Below, piece by piece: positions 3,732 through 30,921 of a DNA stretch of 32,000 nucleotides (position 1 is the first letter of the stretch; each line of letters opens with the position of its first letter). This DNA is from an uncultured archaeon. Its GTDB lineage: Archaea; Asgardarchaeota; Thorarchaeia; Thorarchaeales; CAZPUN01. The notes under the pieces were generated by a model. The model was not told the DNA's origin and did no database searches. It was given only the letters and a program-made list of their open reading frames with translations. Position numbers and translations under genes: made by a program. Location: contig CAZPUN010000023.1 in assembly GCA_964589775.1 (NCBI GenBank), forward strand, positions 1 through 32,000, in the 5' to 3' direction.

Positions 3732-4106
3732 TTAAATTATTCCATATCTCCATTTTCTAATGGATACGAGTGCATAGGCAAGTCCCAAGGTTACAATTCC
3801 TAAGAATCCGCCTACAATTGCTAAAACGCCGAAATCAAGTCTGTATTGAAAGACCATCCATGAGCCCAAGAAAAGAGTAATGACATCCATTATAGCAAAA
3901 AGGATTGCGTAAATGTAATATTGATAATCAAATTGTATATGTGATGTGCCTATCGGGACTTCTCCACATTCGTATGTATCATATTTTGCTTCAGATGGGA
4001 CTCCTTTTGCTCTAGTGAGCTTAGAAGCTGTAAGCATAAGAATAGCAAATAAGGTTCCTGAACCCAACAATAGAATTACAGGCAGGAATTGTTCAAATAA
4101 TGTCAT
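3732..4106 (-). CDS. nuoA: Complex I-like subunit A (3 TM); divergent from the rest of the operon
   Basis: KYDTYECGE loop, FDYQYYIYAILFAIMD and three hydrophobic segments. ATG at 4106 preferred over TTG at 4124. Confidence 0.9.
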   Translation of the reverse strand: MTLFEQFLPVILLLGSGTLFAILMLTASKLTRAKGVPSEAKYDTYECGEVPIGTSHIQFDYQYYIYAILFAIMDVITLFLGSWMVFQYRLDFGVLAIVGGFLGIVTLGLAYALVSIRKWRYGII

Positions 4107-4124
4107 TGCTATCACTATCCACAA

Positions 4125-4286: not shown

Positions 4287-4817
4287 ATGGCTTGGTCCTT
4301 GGAATTCATCGAATTCATTATTTTAGCAGGACTAGCTATTGCTTCTGCTATACTTACATTAGAAACCCGCGAAATTATCTATGGTCTATTCTATTTTGGA
4401 ATTTTCACGATCGCTGTTGGCGGTCTTTACATATTGCTTAACGCGGGTTATCTAGCTATGTTTCAAATGGCTATTTATGCAGGGGCAGTGGTTGTTCTTG
4501 TTTTCTTCGCAATTATGCTAGTCCGAAGAAAAGAAGGAGTTCCAATGTGTTCATATCCCAGTATAAAAACAAAAGTTGGTAGTGCAATACTTAGTATTCT
4601 TCTAATTGTATTTGTGCTTTACTTTGTATTGCAATATCCATGGGTACAAGCAGTAACACTACCTGTTGTAGATCCCGGTGATATATTCTATGTTCTAATG
4701 AGTAATCAACTTCTATCCTTTGAACTAATAGCTGTATTATCTACAGCTACAATCATTGGTGGTGTTGCTTTGGTACGAAATGATATCGAAATTGAAGAAT
4801 CTGAGGAGGGTCAATAA
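4287..4817 (+). CDS. nuoJ: Complex I-like subunit J
   Basis: LNAGYLAMFQMAIYAGAVVVLVFFAIML and FELIAVL motifs; five TM segments. Confidence 0.92.
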   Translation: MAWSLEFIEFIILAGLAIASAILTLETREIIYGLFYFGIFTIAVGGLYILLNAGYLAMFQMAIYAGAVVVLVFFAIMLVRRKEGVPMCSYPSIKTKVGSAILSILLIVFVLYFVLQYPWVQAVTLPVVDPGDIFYVLMSNQLLSFELIAVLSTATIIGGVALVRNDIEIEESEEGQ

Positions 4818-5128
4818 TGGACATACCTCTTGATTATTTCATTATGCTGTCGGTAATGCTCTTTGGTGTTGGTGTATACGGAGTCCTAACCAGACGAAGT
4901 ATCATCCGTATGCTTATGGGCGTTGAAATTATGATGAATGCAGCTAATATCAACTTGATTGCGTTTTCAATTTACTCATCGCCATTCAATTTGAGCGGTC
5001 AGGTACTAGCTTTATTCTCAATAGCAATTGCGGCTGCTGAAGTTGCAGTAGGTCTTGCAATACTGATTCTTGTATATCGCAATCATTCGACAATTGATGT
5101 TAGCGAGTTAAAATCTCTTAATGGGTGA
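4817..5128 (+). CDS. nuoK: Complex I-like subunit K
   Basis: RMLMGVEIMMNAANIN, GQVLALF, AAAEVAVGLA. Confidence 0.95.
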   Translation: MDIPLDYFIMLSVMLFGVGVYGVLTRRSIIRMLMGVEIMMNAANINLIAFSIYSSPFNLSGQVLALFSIAIAAAEVAVGLAILILVYRNHSTIDVSELKSLNG

Positions 5129-5133
5129 TTACT

Positions 5134-5583
5134 ATGGGATTAAAAAGTTGGGCAAGAAAATCATCATTATGGCCAGTCCGTTTTTGTATAGCTTGTTGTT
5201 CTACTGAAATGGCCGCTGCAATGGCATCTAGGTTTGATATGGAGCGATTCGGAGTTATGCCAATTTGGGGACCGCGCCAAGGAGATTTCCTTATGATTGC
5301 AGGATATGTCTCTAAAAAGATGGCAAAAAGATTAGTCCAAATTTATGAACAAATGCCCGAACCTCGATATGTTTTGGCACTTGGCGATTGTACGATGTCT
5401 GGTGGTCCTTATTGGGACAGTTACAATGTAATCGAAAATGTTGGTGATTTAGTCCCCATTGATGTATTTGTACCTGGATGTCCACCTAGGCCTGAAGCAA
5501 TCCTGAAGGGCATTGAACTAATTCAACAAATGATCGAAAAGGGCGAACGACCTAAAGATAAAAAGCCCGTTGTTGTTCAATAG
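5134..5583 (+). CDS. nuoB: Complex I-like subunit B (proximal [4Fe-4S] subunit)
   Basis: CIACCSTE, RFDMERFG, YEQMPEPRYV, GDC, PGCPPRPEA. ATG at 5134 follows GGGTGA. Confidence 0.93.
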   Translation: MGLKSWARKSSLWPVRFCIACCSTEMAAAMASRFDMERFGVMPIWGPRQGDFLMIAGYVSKKMAKRLVQIYEQMPEPRYVLALGDCTMSGGPYWDSYNVIENVGDLVPIDVFVPGCPPRPEAILKGIELIQQMIEKGERPKDKKPVVVQ

Positions 5584-5594
5584 GAGGGTTATCA

Positions 5595-6053
5595 GTGGCA
5601 ACAAATGACGAAATTGTTCAGGTCTTAAAGGATAAATTTGGAGATAACATAAAAGAAGTTGTAACTGATGATTTCAAACATACTTATGTTACAATTTCGA
5701 GAGATATTCTAAAGGATGCTGCAAAAACAATTGCAGAAAACATGGAGAAGCCCCTTGCGGAAATGGTTGCTGTTTCTGATTTTGCGGAAAAACAAGAGTT
5801 CGAGCTTGTATATACCTTCTGGGATTATGTAGGCAAAAATCTAATTCACTTGAAGGTATATGTTCCATATTCAGATCCAGTTGTTCCATCTCTTGCATTA
5901 GACTTTCCTGCTTTAGATTGGTATGAGCGTGAAGGGCACGAGATGTTCGGTGTAAACTTTGAAGGTCATCCAAATCTTGCGCCATTATTACTTGAGGGCT
6001 TCGAAGGTGAATATCCGATGCGAAAGAGCTTTAAGTTAGAACGAAACAGGTAG
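5595..6053 (+). CDS. nuoC: Complex I-like subunit C
   Basis: WYEREGHEMFGVNFEGHPNL...YPMRKSF. Confidence 0.92.
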   Translation: MATNDEIVQVLKDKFGDNIKEVVTDDFKHTYVTISRDILKDAAKTIAENMEKPLAEMVAVSDFAEKQEFELVYTFWDYVGKNLIHLKVYVPYSDPVVPSLALDFPALDWYEREGHEMFGVNFEGHPNLAPLLLEGFEGEYPMRKSFKLERNR

Positions 6054-6061
6054 GTGAAAAT

Positions 6062-7150
6062 ATGAAACAGCAAGTCGAAGTTTATTATGGTCCTCAGCAT
6101 CCTGGAACGCATCCGTTTTCAATTCTTCTCAAGCTTGATGGTGATATCATAATTGATGCAGAGCCCAAAATAGGCTATGTTCATCGTGCTATAGAAAAAT
6201 TAGCCGAGTATCGCGATTTCTATCAGAACATCCCCATTATGGAACGTGCATGTTTTCTCGAAGATCTGATTCATGAACATGGATATATGATCGCTGCAGA
6301 GAAGCTTCTGGGTGTTGAAATTCCAGAGCGCGCAGAATATTTGCGTGTTATTACTGCCGAACTAAGCCGTATTATTAGTCTTTTAATGTGGTTCAGTATG
6401 TTCGGTGGTGAAACAGGTCTTAGCACGACATTCATGTGGGGCTTTACAGACAGAGAAAAATTACTTGATATTATGACTGAAATTACAGGTGCGCGTGTTG
6501 CATTTGCATACTTCCTACCTGGTGGTGTGCGATGGGACTTTCCTGAAGGTATTGAGGATAAGCTTAGAAAATATCTTGACTATCAAGAAGAACAACTAGA
6601 TGTCTATAAAGGACTATTAATGGATAATTCAATCTTTATAGACCGTACCAAGGGTGTGGGCGTTGCAGATCCAGATACGCTCATAAAGCTTGGAGCATCC
6701 GGTCCCGTTCTTCGTGCAAGTGGATTCAAATACGATCTTCGTGTTGATGCACCCTATGGTGTATATGATCATTTCAAGATCGATACCCCTGTTCTTCATA
6801 ATGGCGACTCATATGACCGTACTATGATTCGTCTTATGGATATTAAAACAAGTATTGACATTGTCCGCCAAGCGTTAGACCAATTACCTTCAGGAGATGT
6901 ACGTGTTAAAGTGCGTTCCAAGAAGAAAGCTGCACCTGGCGCAGTATATTCTCGCGTAGAATCTGCAAGAGGTATTTTGGGCTACTATATAATTTCTAAT
7001 GGAACAAACAAGCCATATCGAATTAAGATTCGTGGGCCTTCGTTCTCTCATATGTATGTATTTCCACACTTAATTCGCGGTCTTCATCTGGCTGATGTTC
7101 CTATGGTATTGGGCACATTAGACGTATGCCCTGCAGATCTGGATAGGTGA
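6062..7150 (+). CDS. nuoD: Complex I subunit D / MBS(MBX) large-subunit-like catalytic subunit; no complete NiFe motifs
   Basis: GPQHP, GYVHRAIEKLAE, TGAR, PGGV, SGPVLRASG, ESARG, and C-terminal DVCPADLDR. Confidence 0.9.
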   Translation: MKQQVEVYYGPQHPGTHPFSILLKLDGDIIIDAEPKIGYVHRAIEKLAEYRDFYQNIPIMERACFLEDLIHEHGYMIAAEKLLGVEIPERAEYLRVITAELSRIISLLMWFSMFGGETGLSTTFMWGFTDREKLLDIMTEITGARVAFAYFLPGGVRWDFPEGIEDKLRKYLDYQEEQLDVYKGLLMDNSIFIDRTKGVGVADPDTLIKLGASGPVLRASGFKYDLRVDAPYGVYDHFKIDTPVLHNGDSYDRTMIRLMDIKTSIDIVRQALDQLPSGDVRVKVRSKKKAAPGAVYSRVESARGILGYYIISNGTNKPYRIKIRGPSFSHMYVFPHLIRGLHLADVPMVLGTLDVCPADLDR

Positions 7151-7155
7151 TAGCT

Positions 7156-8130
7156 ATGGATTTCCTGATGACATTTATCCAACTGTTCCTGTTTCCAGGC
7201 TTTACATTTGTATTGATCTCCGCATTAATGCTTATGTACCTGGAGCGTAAAATCATTGCAAGAATGCACATGAGACGTGGTCCCTACTACGTTGGAAAGG
7301 CTGGTATCTTGCAGACACTTGCAGACTTATTGAAATTACTCTATAAAGAAGTAATTGTTCCTAAGACTGCATCAAAATGGGTGCTGTTGGGTGTTCCAAC
7401 ATTAATGTTAATTCTATCATGGGCACCTCTGGCTGTAATCCCATATGATAGCTGGTATTACTTGTCCAGATTCAATGTAAGTCTCCTATTCGTATTTGCA
7501 GCATTATCAGTGTTTCCATTCTTAGGCATGTTATTGGGTTGGGGCTCTGGAAGTAAATATTCATTAATCGGTGGTTATCGTGGAGCGTCACAGCAAATCG
7601 CTTATGAATTGCCATTGTTCCTGTCTGCATTAATTCCTGCATTCTTCGCTGGCAGTTTAGATCTATGGGAGATTGCAGCAGCTCAATCGAAAATCTGGTT
7701 TGGCTTCCTGCATCCAATTGCAATGATCTTGTTCTTCATATCAATGTTAGCTGAACTTGAAAGAATACCATTCGATATTCCTGAGGCTGAAAGCGAACTT
7801 GTTTTCGGTTGGAAGACTGACCTTAGTGGTATTTACTTCGGGTTCTCAATATTTGCAGGTTATACTTTATTGTTTGCAGAATCTGCATTCTTTGTCACAC
7901 TATTCTTAGGCGGATGGAATGGGCCATTCTTACCCGGTTGGCTATGGTTCTTCATTAAGACATTCATTGTACTATACATAATGTTCTGGATTCGAGCTGC
8001 ACAGCCCCGATACCGAATGGACCAATTACTATCAATTAGTTGGAAGAAATTTGTACCGATTGCAATATTCAACATAATCTTGGGAGTCTTCATAATGCTA
8101 TACATAGTTCCCATAATTGGAGGAATATAA
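7156..8130 (+). CDS. nuoH: Complex I-like subunit H
   Basis: ERKIIARMHMRRGP, QTLADLLKLLYKE, SKYSLIGGYR, RIPFDIPEAESEL, PRYRMDQL. ATG at 7156 follows AGGTGA (GTG at 7147 is the alternative). Confidence 0.95.
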   Translation: MDFLMTFIQLFLFPGFTFVLISALMLMYLERKIIARMHMRRGPYYVGKAGILQTLADLLKLLYKEVIVPKTASKWVLLGVPTLMLILSWAPLAVIPYDSWYYLSRFNVSLLFVFAALSVFPFLGMLLGWGSGSKYSLIGGYRGASQQIAYELPLFLSALIPAFFAGSLDLWEIAAAQSKIWFGFLHPIAMILFFISMLAELERIPFDIPEAESELVFGWKTDLSGIYFGFSIFAGYTLLFAESAFFVTLFLGGWNGPFLPGWLWFFIKTFIVLYIMFWIRAAQPRYRMDQLLSISWKKFVPIAIFNIILGVFIMLYIVPIIGGI

Positions 8131-8131
8131 A

Positions 8132-8569
8132 ATGGGCAGACTTGGATTTCTAAAAAGTATGTATCTGACATTTAAGCAGTTTTTCAGAAAGCCAGTCACA
8201 GTGTTATATCCTGAAGAGCGAATTCCCGATTTCTCACGATACCGTGGAATTCACTTATTAAATATGCAAAAATGCAAGGGTTGTAACCTATGTGGTATGG
8301 CTTGTCCTAACTTTGCCATTAAAATGGTTGAGCGACTAAATCCAAAAACTGGTAAAATGTCCAAATATCCCGAGATCAATATGGCACGTTGTATGTTCTG
8401 TGGATTATGCGAAGATGCATGTCCATTAGATTGTTTGAAGCTCGGGGGAATATATGACTTTGCAACTGATTCATTTGAAGAATTAATATTTCCCCCTGAA
8501 AAACTAGCGGAGTTATGGGAACAAAGATTCGGTACTCCCGCATTATTAGAATCAAAATCAAATGAGTAA
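8132..8569 (+). CDS. nuoI: Complex I-like subunit I (2x[4Fe-4S])
   Basis: TVLYPEE, RYRGIH, CKGCNLCGMACP and CMFCGLCEDACP. ATG at 8132 follows GGAGG. Confidence 0.95.
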   Translation: MGRLGFLKSMYLTFKQFFRKPVTVLYPEERIPDFSRYRGIHLLNMQKCKGCNLCGMACPNFAIKMVERLNPKTGKMSKYPEINMARCMFCGLCEDACPLDCLKLGGIYDFATDSFEELIFPPEKLAELWEQRFGTPALLESKSNE

Positions 8570-28227: not shown

Positions 28228-28560
28228 ATGATGGAATTAAGTATGTTACTGCAGGTAAATATTATAATACTTGCAGCACTATGTTTCATTGGGGTATTAT
28301 ACTTACTAGCGCGTAAAATGGCGCCTCCACCAAGAACTTCTGGTGCTGCAGTTGAGCCGTATGGCTCAGGTGAAAAAGTAAAAATTGGAAAGCTAAAGTT
28401 CAGGGCACAAATGCTGAATTTTGTATTCATGTTTATTGTATTTGAGTCGTTGATATTATCAATTCTTGCATGGCAAGTAAATCCACTTGCTGTTAGTGTA
28501 TATCTAATTGTGACCCTGTTCGCATTGCTTGCTACAAAGCAATGTACTACAGTTTGTTAG
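28228..28560 (+). CDS. Second, divergent NuoA-like membrane subunit
   Basis: Three TM segments, EPYGSGE loop (equivalent to PYECG), FIVFE motif; first gene of the B-C-H-I cluster. Confidence 0.75.
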   Translation: MMELSMLLQVNIIILAALCFIGVLYLLARKMAPPPRTSGAAVEPYGSGEKVKIGKLKFRAQMLNFVFMFIVFESLILSILAWQVNPLAVSVYLIVTLFALLATKQCTTVC

Positions 28561-28563
28561 GAG

Positions 28564-29016
28564 TTGATATTAGTGGTTCTTGCAAAAATTGCAAAATGGG
28601 CTAGGTTAAAGTCACCTTGGGTTATCCACATGAATAGTGGTAGCTGTAATGGGTGTGATATTGAAATAGTAGCGGCATTGACTCCTCGTTATGATCTTGA
28701 ACGCTTTGGTGTCAAATTAATGGGTAGTCCTAGGCACGCAGATATTATGCTTCTTACTGGTACTATGACTGCACAGGCTAGAGAACGAGCAATTCGTGTT
28801 TATGAGCAGATGGCCGAGCCAAAGTTTGTTGTTGCAATTGGAAGTTGCGCTTTAAGTGGCGGTGTTTTTGCAGGTAGTTACAATACATTAAAAGGAGCCG
28901 ATAAAGCTTTACCAATTGCTGCGTATGTGCCTGGTTGTCCACCTAAGCCTGAAGCAATTATTCAAGCCGTAGCAGCCCTATTAGAAAAGCTCGAAAAAGG
29001 TGAAAGCAATGAGTGA
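28564..29016 (+). CDS. Group 4 [NiFe]-hydrogenase small subunit / NuoB-like protein
   Basis: SPWVIH, SCNGCDIE, YDLERFG, SPRHAD, GSCALSGG, PGCPPKPEA; start may be GTG at 28573. Confidence 0.9.
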   Translation: MILVVLAKIAKWARLKSPWVIHMNSGSCNGCDIEIVAALTPRYDLERFGVKLMGSPRHADIMLLTGTMTAQARERAIRVYEQMAEPKFVVAIGSCALSGGVFAGSYNTLKGADKALPIAAYVPGCPPKPEAIIQAVAALLEKLEKGESNE

Positions 29017-29488
29017 TCAAAATTTAGCAGCTGAAAATGAAATAGTATCCATGCTGAAGAAATATTTGGGTGACGACTTAAAGGACATTAATATTCAGCG
29101 TCGCCATAGAGTGTGGGCTGAGATTCCCGTTTCAAAACTAAGAGATACACTCCAATTCTTAATTGATAATCGCAACTTGTACTATTTATCCACGATAAGT
29201 GGAGTTGACATGAAAGATCATTTTGAAATGCTATATCATTTGTTCTTGCATGAAGATAAGATTGAGTTGACCCTTACAGTAAAATTACCCCATGATAACC
29301 CTTCAGTCCCCACGATTATTGATCTATTCCCTGGTGCTGATATGGCTGAACGTGAAGCACATGAAATGTTTGGTATTAATATTGAGGGTCGTGATGAAGA
29401 ACTAAAGCATGTGGAACTTCCAGATACGTGGCCCGAAGGTCAATATCCACTCAGAAAGGATTGGAGTGGAAATAATGAGGAAGCCTGA
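29009..29488 (+). CDS. NuoC-like subunit (MbhK/EchD-like)
   Basis: LSTISGVD, VPTIIDLFPGADMAEREAHEMFGI, LPDTWPEGQYPLRKD. Confidence 0.9.
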   Translation: MSDQNLAAENEIVSMLKKYLGDDLKDINIQRRHRVWAEIPVSKLRDTLQFLIDNRNLYYLSTISGVDMKDHFEMLYHLFLHEDKIELTLTVKLPHDNPSVPTIIDLFPGADMAEREAHEMFGINIEGRDEELKHVELPDTWPEGQYPLRKDWSGNNEEA

Positions 29489-29498
29489 GGTGAAGTAA

Positions 29499-30551
29499 AT
29501 GGAGATTATTATGGAATCCCTTATGTTTTTCTTGCAAGTATTGATATTTCCCGGAATATTCTTCCTGACATTTGTTGCTCTATTGTGGGAATGGGTAGAC
29601 CGTAAATTTTACGCTAAATTACAGAATAGAGTAGGGCCTTATTTCACAGGTAAGAAAGGGTTCCTACAGCCTCTTGCCGATTTCTTAAAATTATTGTCTA
29701 AGGAAGATCTAACTCCTGAACAGAGTAACAAGCGTGGGTTCAAAGCAGCTCCAATTGTAATCGCAATTACAATTCTATTCTTATTGATGTTTATACCCAT
29801 CACTGGTGCAAAAGGAATTATTTCATTTGAAGGCGACCTTCTATTTGTTTTGTTTGGGTCTTCATTGATCATGGCTGTAATTATGCTTTCTGGATGGTTT
29901 TCATCAAGTCCTTTTGCTATTGCGGGTGGTACTCGTACCGGATTGCTTATGATTGCTTATGAATTGCCATTAATTATTTCCTTACTAACTCCTGCAGTTA
30001 TCGTCGGCAGTCTAAATATATCCACAATTATCACGTATCAACTAACTCACGGCTTACCATTTATTGCAATATTTCCAATAATGTTTGGATTTATAATTTA
30101 TGTCATCGCATTAGAAGCAGAACTAGAACGAGTGCCATTCGATGTTTCACATGCTGAAACTGAAATTGTTGCAGGTTGGAAAGTAGAATATTCTGGTAAA
30201 AAACTGGCATTGCTCTCGATGGTTTCAGATCTCGAACTAGTGTTTGGCGCAGGTATTGCAACAGCTATATTCTTAGGCGGCCCCTTCTTGTTTGAATTTA
30301 TTCCACTTGATTGGGCTCAGTCTATTGCTACTCTTGCGGCTACCACATACTTTGGATTACTGTATTATCCTCTAGTATTCCTGTTCAAGTCTTTCTTGAT
30401 AATATTAATACTAAGCTTGTTTAGAGCTCTAATGGCTCGTCTAAGAATTGACCAAATTATAAATGCGTCATGGAAAATTTTACTTCCTCTGGCAATTTTG
30501 GTGCTATTACTAGTACATTTGCCGAGTGTATTAGCATTATGGGGGCTATAA
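29499..30551 (+). CDS. NuoH-like membrane subunit (MbhM/EchB-like)
   Basis: DRKFYAKLQNRVGP, QPLADFLKLLSKE, ERVPFDVSHAETEIVAG, ARLRIDQ. Confidence 0.92.
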   Translation: MEIIMESLMFFLQVLIFPGIFFLTFVALLWEWVDRKFYAKLQNRVGPYFTGKKGFLQPLADFLKLLSKEDLTPEQSNKRGFKAAPIVIAITILFLLMFIPITGAKGIISFEGDLLFVLFGSSLIMAVIMLSGWFSSSPFAIAGGTRTGLLMIAYELPLIISLLTPAVIVGSLNISTIITYQLTHGLPFIAIFPIMFGFIIYVIALEAELERVPFDVSHAETEIVAGWKVEYSGKKLALLSMVSDLELVFGAGIATAIFLGGPFLFEFIPLDWAQSIATLAATTYFGLLYYPLVFLFKSFLIILILSLFRALMARLRIDQIINASWKILLPLAILVLLLVHLPSVLALWGL

Positions 30552-30552
30552 T

Positions 30553-30921
30553 ATGTGTCCAGTTCCTGGTAAGATGATTGGTGAATTGCTAAGGCATGCT
30601 TTCAAGAAGAGCGCAACAACTTCATATCCTTTGTCAAAGGATGAAGTCAATATTCCCCAAGATTTACGTGGCAAATGGGAATTGTATTTGGACAAATGTA
30701 TTGGATGTAGTCTGTGTGAGCGCGTATGTCCATCATTTGCCATAGTCATGGTTGAATGCCGTGAGGGTGAAACTACAAAGACAGGAAAGCGTCCAATTTG
30801 CCACATTGATAAATGTGTATTTTGCGCTCAATGTGAAGAGACATGTCCAACAAAAGCAATAAAATTAACACAAAACTTTGAGCTCGCGTTATTCAATCGT
30901 GAGAATGGCGTAATTGAGTAA
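30553..30921 (+). CDS. NuoI-like 2x[4Fe-4S] subunit (MbhN/EchF-like)
   Basis: ATTSYP, LRGK, CIGCSLCERVCP and CVFCAQCEETCP. Confidence 0.92.
   Translation: MCPVPGKMIGELLRHAFKKSATTSYPLSKDEVNIPQDLRGKWELYLDKCIGCSLCERVCPSFAIVMVECREGETTKTGKRPICHIDKCVFCAQCEETCPTKAIKLTQNFELALFNRENGVIE

Follow-up and report, generated by a model that had tools for sequence, protein, structure and literature searches.

What does a protein of the NuoD family do when it keeps two of the four cysteines of a [NiFe] site and has lost the tyrosine that binds quinone? The question is raised by a gene in a window of 32,000 nt (the whole stretch of DNA that was analysed) on contig CAZPUN010000023.1 of assembly GCA_964589775.1. 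This assembly, G000 in what follows, is an archaeal genome placed in Asgardarchaeota; Thorarchaeia; Thorarchaeales; CAZPUN01. The gene is an open reading frame at positions 6062-7150 on the + strand, and its translation is a NuoD/MbsL-type subunit of 362 residues, P0001, without an internal stop. With a probability of roughly 0.6, P0001 is the substrate-pocket subunit of an ion pump that lacks NuoEFG and is probably fed by ferredoxin. Its two cysteines would then be non-catalytic relics, and the acceptor of its electrons is probably a non-standard one.

Evidence for this answer begins with the motifs. A sequence-only reading of the same DNA had reported the L1 region as ERAC64FLED, with the cysteine codon at 6251, and the C-terminus as DVC356PADLDR, with the codon at 7127. 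The translation bears out both motifs and both codons (TGT for C64, TGC for C356), and C64, E67, C356 and D359 together make up a vestigial [NiFe] site. The same reading had assigned the two cysteines to the L1 and L2 columns of hydrogenases, which comparison with three relatives confirms. The first of these, P0121, is a four-cysteine group 4 hydrogenase large subunit from the same genome (ERVCGICSHS and DPCFSCCDR; contig C8, 15807-16997). In the alignment with it, C64 stands at the first cysteine of L1 and E67 at the second; C356 and D359 hold the corresponding places in L2. In standard hydrogenases the first cysteine of each motif is presumably a terminal Ni ligand and the second a bridging one. 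Since just two of the four Ni ligands (C64 and C356) are kept, P0001 can be ruled out as a [NiFe]-hydrogenase.

The second relative is the 49-kDa subunit NUCM of complex I from Y. lipolytica. A HMMER alignment matches C64 with D143, F65 with the quinone tyrosine Y144, and C356 with a valine. The loss of the quinone-binding tyrosine, also claimed from the sequence alone, is therefore real, and the phenylalanine in its place is invariant in the clade to which P0001 belongs. H17 corresponds to H95 (H38 in Nqo4 of T. thermophilus) and E117 to D196 (Nqo4 D139). Both NuoD-like histidines have accordingly been kept, as had been noticed: H13 and H17 lie in the beta1-beta2 loop with the canonical HxxxH spacing.

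The third relative is MbsL (6u8y_L) of P. furiosus, from MBS, a membrane-bound enzyme that reduces sulfane sulfur. It reads RIC85VPE88 and NC385PPD388IDR, so that, as the earlier reading had stated, only the first cysteine of each pair remains, and this C-E-C-D state is identical to that of P0001. The strand FSILLKLDG of P0001, which had been called MBS-like, has its counterpart in NFSIILKMDG of MbsL. C85 and C385 of MbsL are the two survivors of four NiFe ligands, and an enzyme carrying C85A/C385A is as active as the wild type (PMC7684303; PMC8165549).

Nearly all of this is preserved among the closest relatives of P0001. No variation is seen among the nine members of the clade (48-56% identity) at H13, H17, P18, C64, F65 and E117 or anywhere in the DVCPADLDR tail, and the four former ligand positions hold C, D/E, C and D, either invariant or conservatively kept. 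The invariance of any single residue is modest evidence, because about 30% of the columns show no variation across this nine-member set. Position 359, moreover, is acidic in nearly all members of the family, irrespective of the state of the cysteines.

Family models and fold comparison place the protein with NuoD in a broad sense. P0001 matches the Pfam family Complex1_49kDa (2e-83) and passes the NCBIfam NuoD equivalog NF004739 (424.1 bits, cut-off 360); it falls below the cut-offs of TIGR01962 (358 vs 459) and of the FpoD model NF040602 (338 vs 600). An AlphaFold2 (AF2) model built on a 70-sequence alignment has a predicted local distance difference test score (pLDDT) of 94.3 and a predicted template modelling score (pTM) of 0.94, with lower confidence only in the beta1-beta2 loop and the last residues. 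In a Foldseek search, a TM-score on the query (TMq) of 0.95 is reached by MbsL and equally by the 49-kDa subunits of complex I, so the fold search does not separate these candidates. Among the listed structures MbsL has the highest identity (37%), the best target coverage (TM-score on the target, TMt, 0.92) and the same size. An insertion of about 30 residues in canonical NuoD, near residue 285, is missing in P0001, as it is in MbsL and MbhL.

The partner subunit is mixed as well. NuoB (P0122, 152 residues, 5125..5583, + strand) is of the NuoB/MbsJ type, with the motifs FC21IAC24C25STEM, GDC89 and GC119PP. Among solved chains it scores best with MbsJ (164.6 bits), followed by the mitochondrial PSST subunit (about 154) and MbhJ (106.6). 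C21 and C24 align with C25 and C28 of MbsJ, and C25 falls where MbsJ has a glycine (G29). From the motif rather than from a direct alignment with Nqo6, we take C24 and C25 to be the tandem pair of complex I (Nqo6 C45 and C46). The resulting CxxCC, which joins the CxxC of MBS to the tandem CC of complex I, occupies window positions 5185-5199 (NuoB residues 21-25). It is present in all three operons of the clade that were examined: that of G000, that of Ca. Heimdallarchaeum aukensis (NuoB gene at L011:8993-9508) and that of a metagenome contig (L067:1358-1879). The counterpart motif is YCTGCG in MbsJ-like proteins of Thermoplasmatota and KCCAIEM in an Asgard complex that bears the tyrosine. By its sequence, then, NuoB itself looks like a mosaic: MbsJ is its best match in the Protein Data Bank, yet it has the tandem cysteines of complex I.

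In MBS, a missing ligand of the proximal cluster leaves an open iron that is the proposed catalytic site (PMC7684303). Because NuoB keeps the tandem cysteine pair, the corresponding cluster N2 is probably fully ligated here, which makes an MBS-like catalysis at an open iron unlikely. A complete four-cysteine N2 is probably to be expected in the Asgard complex.

Trees of the family were computed with FastTree (190 rows) and with IQ-TREE under LG+C20 with posterior mean site frequencies (PMSF; 78 rows, a quick search followed by a careful one); columns 64-67 and 356-359 were excluded from the two IQ-TREE runs only. Support is given as ultrafast bootstrap (UFBoot) / Shimodaira-Hasegawa-like approximate likelihood ratio test (SH-aLRT). 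The four-cysteine hydrogenase sequences form a separate clade (100/100). The Asgard clade joins a sister lineage in which both cysteines are replaced, by S and Y (99/97), and in the unconstrained tree this group lies with other two-cysteine forms that have the phenylalanine, with thaumarchaeal-type NuoD and with MbsL-like sequences (81/95, a moderate value). The MbsL-like sequences are themselves a clade (99/96), within which the Asgard clade is not nested. On the canonical side (59/83), the core NuoD clade has a support of 92/96, and P0001 stands outside that core.

The two-cysteine state is not confined to P0001. In a survey of 190 homologues, mostly representatives at 50% identity, both first cysteines are kept in about 35, including the combinations CDCD (20), CECD (6) and CECE (3), and the pattern C-[DE]-C-[DE] occurs in about 30 representative clusters. 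Among these two-cysteine homologues are MbsL-like forms with a valine after the cysteine (Thermoplasmatota, Peptococcaceae), forms with the phenylalanine and forms that keep the tyrosine (DRxCY...). The idea of a unique mosaic was rejected for this reason, and what the sequence-only reading had treated as special, the keeping of exactly two of four cysteines, is an old and widespread grade. Since both sides of the tree have two-cysteine forms branching at their base, the simplest reading of these sequences is that all non-hydrogenase members descend from a two-cysteine state, which was lost many times. The survey thus makes the two-cysteine state a broad ancestral grade and no peculiarity of Thermococcales. 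Loss of the tyrosine is likewise common, and thaumarchaeal-type NuoD is without it.

Asgard genomes alone contain several of these states: four-cysteine hydrogenases, fused two-cysteine forms, two-cysteine forms with the tyrosine, one-cysteine forms resembling that of Thaumarchaeota, and one form with no cysteine. Seven loci from one Asgard family (L052, L055, L061 and L063-L066; code f22) have both relic cysteines and the quinone tyrosine (DRLCY... and DLCMGEIDR), and genomes with this form carry COX1 and/or cytochrome bd. In these forms the relic pair is found together with what is likely a quinone-reducing site. Loci of three other Asgard families (L039-L050, L053 and L058; codes f10, f12 and f16) have a thaumarchaeal-like NuoD with the first relic cysteine only, in ER[VQ]CL[PS]D, and a C-terminal DYWP..DADR. 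Look-alikes of MbsL, with PRICVPDPD and VCPPDIDR, were seen in metagenome-assembled genomes of Thermoplasmatota (L012-L017, L021, L022, L028 and L029), in loci where the small subunits resemble MbsJ and the gene order resembles that of MBS/MBX. MBS-type complexes thus extend well beyond Thermococcales.

The genomes that carry the complex provide evidence on its acceptor. G000 is 96.75% complete, and G027, the genome of Ca. Heimdallarchaeum aukensis, is a single contig. In family searches of both, COX1, cytochrome bd, cytochrome b of the NarI/HdrE/DsrM type, NrfD/PsrC, cytochrome b of the bc type and the Sdh_cyt anchor were not found. G000 has two genes of the UbiA family, one resembling digeranylgeranylglyceryl phosphate (DGGGP) synthase and the other decaprenyl-phosphate phosphoribosyltransferase. 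Neither is MenA- or UbiA-like, and by sequence both look like enzymes of lipids and the envelope. Among four Asgard control genomes with a tyrosine-keeping NuoD, COX1 was found in two and cytochrome bd in three. MqnA/D was not found in G000, in G027 or in the oxidase-bearing controls, and because the controls lack it too, it is uninformative as a marker of quinones. As no quinol-oxidising enzyme, oxidase or quinone-type prenyltransferase was recognised, a conventional quinone loop is not supported.

The gene for P0001 is part of an operon with the order nuoJ-K-B-C-D-H-I-M'-L-M-N, all on the + strand. It starts with nuoJ (4287-4817) and nuoK (4817-5128), and between nuoB and the gene for P0001 lies nuoC, which encodes the 30 kDa subunit (5595..6053). 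Next come nuoH (7147..8130), encoding the membrane anchor, and nuoI (8117..8569), whose product has two [4Fe-4S] clusters and is likely the side on which the electron donor docks. Among solved chains the best relatives of NuoH are ND1/NuoH of complex I, and the MBS anchor MbsM was not among its matches at a threshold of 1e-45. An extra antiporter-like subunit, M' (503 residues, 8562..10073), precedes the NuoL-NuoM-NuoN region (10087..15042, with NuoM at 12160-13611 and NuoN at 13615-15042), which brings the antiporter-like subunits to four. The solved chain nearest to M' is MbhH (6cfw_H), at 210 bits slightly above NuoM at 203; M' may be of the Mrp/Mbh type or a duplicate of NuoM. NuoL, with 690 residues in total, has a long C-terminal part: about 86 residues follow the part aligned with NdhF, compared with 46 in the NdhF chain. 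NuoA is encoded upstream at 3732..4124 on the - strand, divergent from the operon. NuoEFG are not in the operon, and a search of the G000 genome did not find NuoF. The Ca. Heimdallarchaeum aukensis genome (L011) and the metagenome contig L067 have these genes in the same order. The window also encodes TFIIB, which marks it as archaeal.

These observations suggest the following picture of the enzyme. It would be an ion pump of the complex I/MBS/MBH superfamily (MBH being the membrane-bound hydrogenase), with four antiporter-like subunits in the architecture known as "2M". C64 and C356 would have been inherited from the ancestral NiFe site, in which the second cysteine of each pair became Glu or Asp. 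By analogy with the mutagenesis of MbsL, the two cysteines may line the pocket beside the proximal [4Fe-4S] cluster and take no part in the chemistry. Electrons would pass from NuoI to cluster N2 in NuoB and on to a substrate in the cavity between NuoB, P0001 and NuoH, and the retained pair H17-E117 would be the source of protons. The acceptor could be sulfane sulfur, an unfamiliar lipophilic carrier or a partner protein. It is probably non-standard, since no oxidase and no enzyme that oxidises quinol could be detected in G000 or G027.

Several points weigh against a pump with relic cysteines and a non-standard acceptor. The strict conservation of the four former ligand positions could mean that they continue to bind something. 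H17, E117, the tandem cysteines and the ND1-like NuoH are features of quinone reductases, and complex I mutants of Y. lipolytica with Y144F, Y144W or Y144H still reduce Q1 and Q2, so that a quinone-like acceptor is possible (PMC9120487). The transfer from ferredoxin to polysulfide yields less free energy than four pump modules require, and MBS has two (PMC8165549). The missing quinone genes rest on family searches, to which MqnA/D adds nothing. Finally, a tree constrained to have the Asgard clade on the canonical side loses 13 log-likelihood units and is not rejected by the approximately unbiased (AU) test (p = 0.168). The sequence-only reading had concluded that the protein is a mosaic, neither hydrogenase nor standard quinone reductase. 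The latter part is upheld by the two of four Ni ligands, the exchange of Tyr for Phe, the position outside core NuoD and the C-E-C-D state of MbsL, although the AU test leaves a placement on the canonical side unrejected; the notion of a rare mosaic is not upheld.

The alternative that survives best is a reductase of sulfane sulfur (polysulfide) that is of the MBS type but has a membrane arm like that of complex I; polysulfide would enter the cavity and be reduced there as the terminal acceptor. The likeness to MBS (PMC7684303) consists of the same two NiFe cysteines with Glu and Asp, the xCPxDxDR tail, the FSI(I/L)LK(M/L)DG strand with its MbsL-like loop, an MbsL-sized protein free of the canonical NuoD insertion, a NuoB whose best solved relative is MbsJ, and the absence of an NADH module. 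The common superclade with MbsL-like sequences speaks for it as well. It would also explain why G000 and G027 show no quinol-oxidising partners, since a polysulfide-type acceptor needs no quinol oxidase. Ca. Heimdallarchaeum aukensis comes from hydrothermal sediment, which counts in its favour. Against such an enzyme stands NuoB, where a cysteine replaces the glycine of MbsJ, so that the tandem pair, in place of the three-cysteine proximal cluster of MbsJ, makes an open iron unexpected on the sequence. MbsL, furthermore, is without equivalents of H38 and Y87 (PMC7684303); the tyrosine is gone in both proteins, but P0001 keeps the histidine as H17. The membrane arms differ too: MBS has two antiporter-like subunits and an Mrp-type Na+ module, whereas here there are NuoA, NuoJ and NuoK, a NuoH that is ND1-like and not MbsM-like, no Mrp-type module, and four antiporter-like subunits, which exceed the small energy span from ferredoxin to polysulfide (PMC8165549). 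On balance a polysulfide reductase is unlikely.

A second alternative is that the complex is a ferredoxin:carrier oxidoreductase comparable to Fpo, NDH-1 or thaumarchaeal complex I, in which Phe serves for Tyr and both the carrier (of the quinone type or another lipophilic one) and the enzyme that re-oxidises it have escaped recognition. P0001 shares with canonical NuoD, Nqo4 and the 49-kDa subunit the fold, the equivalog score above its cut-off, the HxxxH with the equivalent of H38, and E117 for D139; the complex shares with complex I the tandem cysteines of NuoB, the ND1-like NuoH and the subunits A, J, K, L, M and N. Thaumarchaeal-type NuoD has likewise lost the tyrosine, the Y144F/W/H mutants keep their activity with Q1 and Q2 (PMC9120487), and a four-pump arm requires a large redox span. 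Unlike Nqo4, P0001 has Phe for Tyr87, Cys for Asp86 and a kept cysteine in the C-terminal motif; the insertion near 285 is missing, and so are NuoEFG. The searches that found no oxidase, cytochrome b, NrfD, NarI/HdrE or Sdh anchor in G000 and G027, and recognised no quinone-type prenyltransferase, make this alternative unlikely as well.

A third alternative is very improbable: that Cys, Glu/Asp, Cys and Asp at the old ligand positions hold a mononuclear metal of a new kind, or that the cysteines make up a redox-active pair, and that this site performs or gates the chemistry. The preservation of the four positions in the clade and the recurrence of C-[DE]-C-[DE] in the survey would fit, but the corresponding quartet of MbsL reportedly cannot accommodate a NiFe cluster, its C85A/C385A form is fully active (PMC7684303), the sister lineage within the 99/97 clade has lost both cysteines, and position 359 is acidic whatever the state of the cysteines.

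The pump with relic cysteines and a non-standard acceptor can also be compared with two groups of complexes that lack NuoEFG. Complex I homologues of the 2M type (Chadwick et al. 2018, ISME J, as cited by Appler et al.) have a fourth antiporter-like subunit and are reportedly quinone reductases in quinone-bearing organisms. The Asgard complex resembles them in the extra M gene between nuoI and nuoL, the long NuoL and the lack of an NADH module, and the thaumarchaeal-type NuoD belongs to the same superclade (81/95). It differs in that thaumarchaeal-type NuoD has mostly lost both cysteines and in that no quinone-linked enzymes were found in its own hosts. The other group consists of the Asgard complex-I-like group 4 [NiFe]-hydrogenases 4j-4q, which were selected on two CxxC motifs and are described with shorter membrane arms (Appler et al., preprint, 10.1101/2024.07.04.601786). 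These have in common with the present complex the phylum, the NuoBCDI type, the lack of NuoEFG and a proposed supply by ferredoxin. P0001, however, has two cysteines and not four, its complex has a longer arm, and G000 has the separate four-cysteine P0121.

P0121 is itself isolated. Its gene (396 residues; L010:9808-10998; RVCGICSHSH and DPCFSCCDR) is an orphan among genes of folate, purine and glycolysis, and no genes for a small subunit or for membrane subunits were found near it. A module of NuoA-B-C-H-I without a D subunit lies in the window at 28228-30921, and P0121 is a candidate for its missing large subunit.

The clade to which P0001 belongs is rare. Its nearest homologues, at 48-56% identity, come from Asgard archaea named Asgardarchaeia and Heimdallarchaeaceae at NCBI. 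Among about 15 billion proteins, there are 1-4 members per cluster at 90% identity; P0001 is its own representative at 50%, and the cluster closest to it shares 46% identity. Two of the 201 sampled Asgard genomes carry the complex, namely G000 and G027, and a metagenome scan added one full and one partial locus. In 44 sampled genomes of the order of G000 the best matches have 36-42% identity, which, judged by identity alone, is the level of the four-cysteine paralogue. Nor was the two-cysteine complex with the phenylalanine found in G075, a congener of G027 (genus code g37, both genomes single contigs), where the best match has 43% identity. This patchy distribution, with presence in G027 and not in G075 or in the 44 genomes of the order of G000, suggests transfer or repeated loss.

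A literature search found no paper on the combination of two cysteines, phenylalanine, CxxCC and 2M design in Asgard archaea. What is unusual here is this combination of features, not the two-cysteine state itself. The usual illustrations of the step from hydrogenase-like enzymes to quinone-reducing complex I are three enzymes of known structure: MBH, MBS and complex I. The Asgard clade joins traits of the last two in one operon: a relic site like that of MBS and an MbsJ-like NuoB stand beside N2 ligands of the complex I type, the proton-donating histidine and acid, a membrane anchor resembling ND1 and a lengthened pump arm. Its hosts are Asgard archaea that live anaerobically and have no quinone partners that could be recognised. 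The pipeline label "NADH-quinone oxidoreductase subunit D", given to all of these proteins, probably misstates the donor and the acceptor alike, a mislabelling that bears on metabolic reconstructions of the archaea nearest to eukaryotes. More tentatively, the complex might represent a surviving intermediate that links MBS with complex I: an enzyme with four pumps and the build of complex I, whose pocket, with its vestigial NiFe site, its His-Glu pair and an N2 ligated by CxxCC, reduces something other than quinone (such as sulfane sulfur or a novel carrier), or one that runs in reverse and makes reduced ferredoxin. If true, either would reveal the stepwise assembly of the quinone site.

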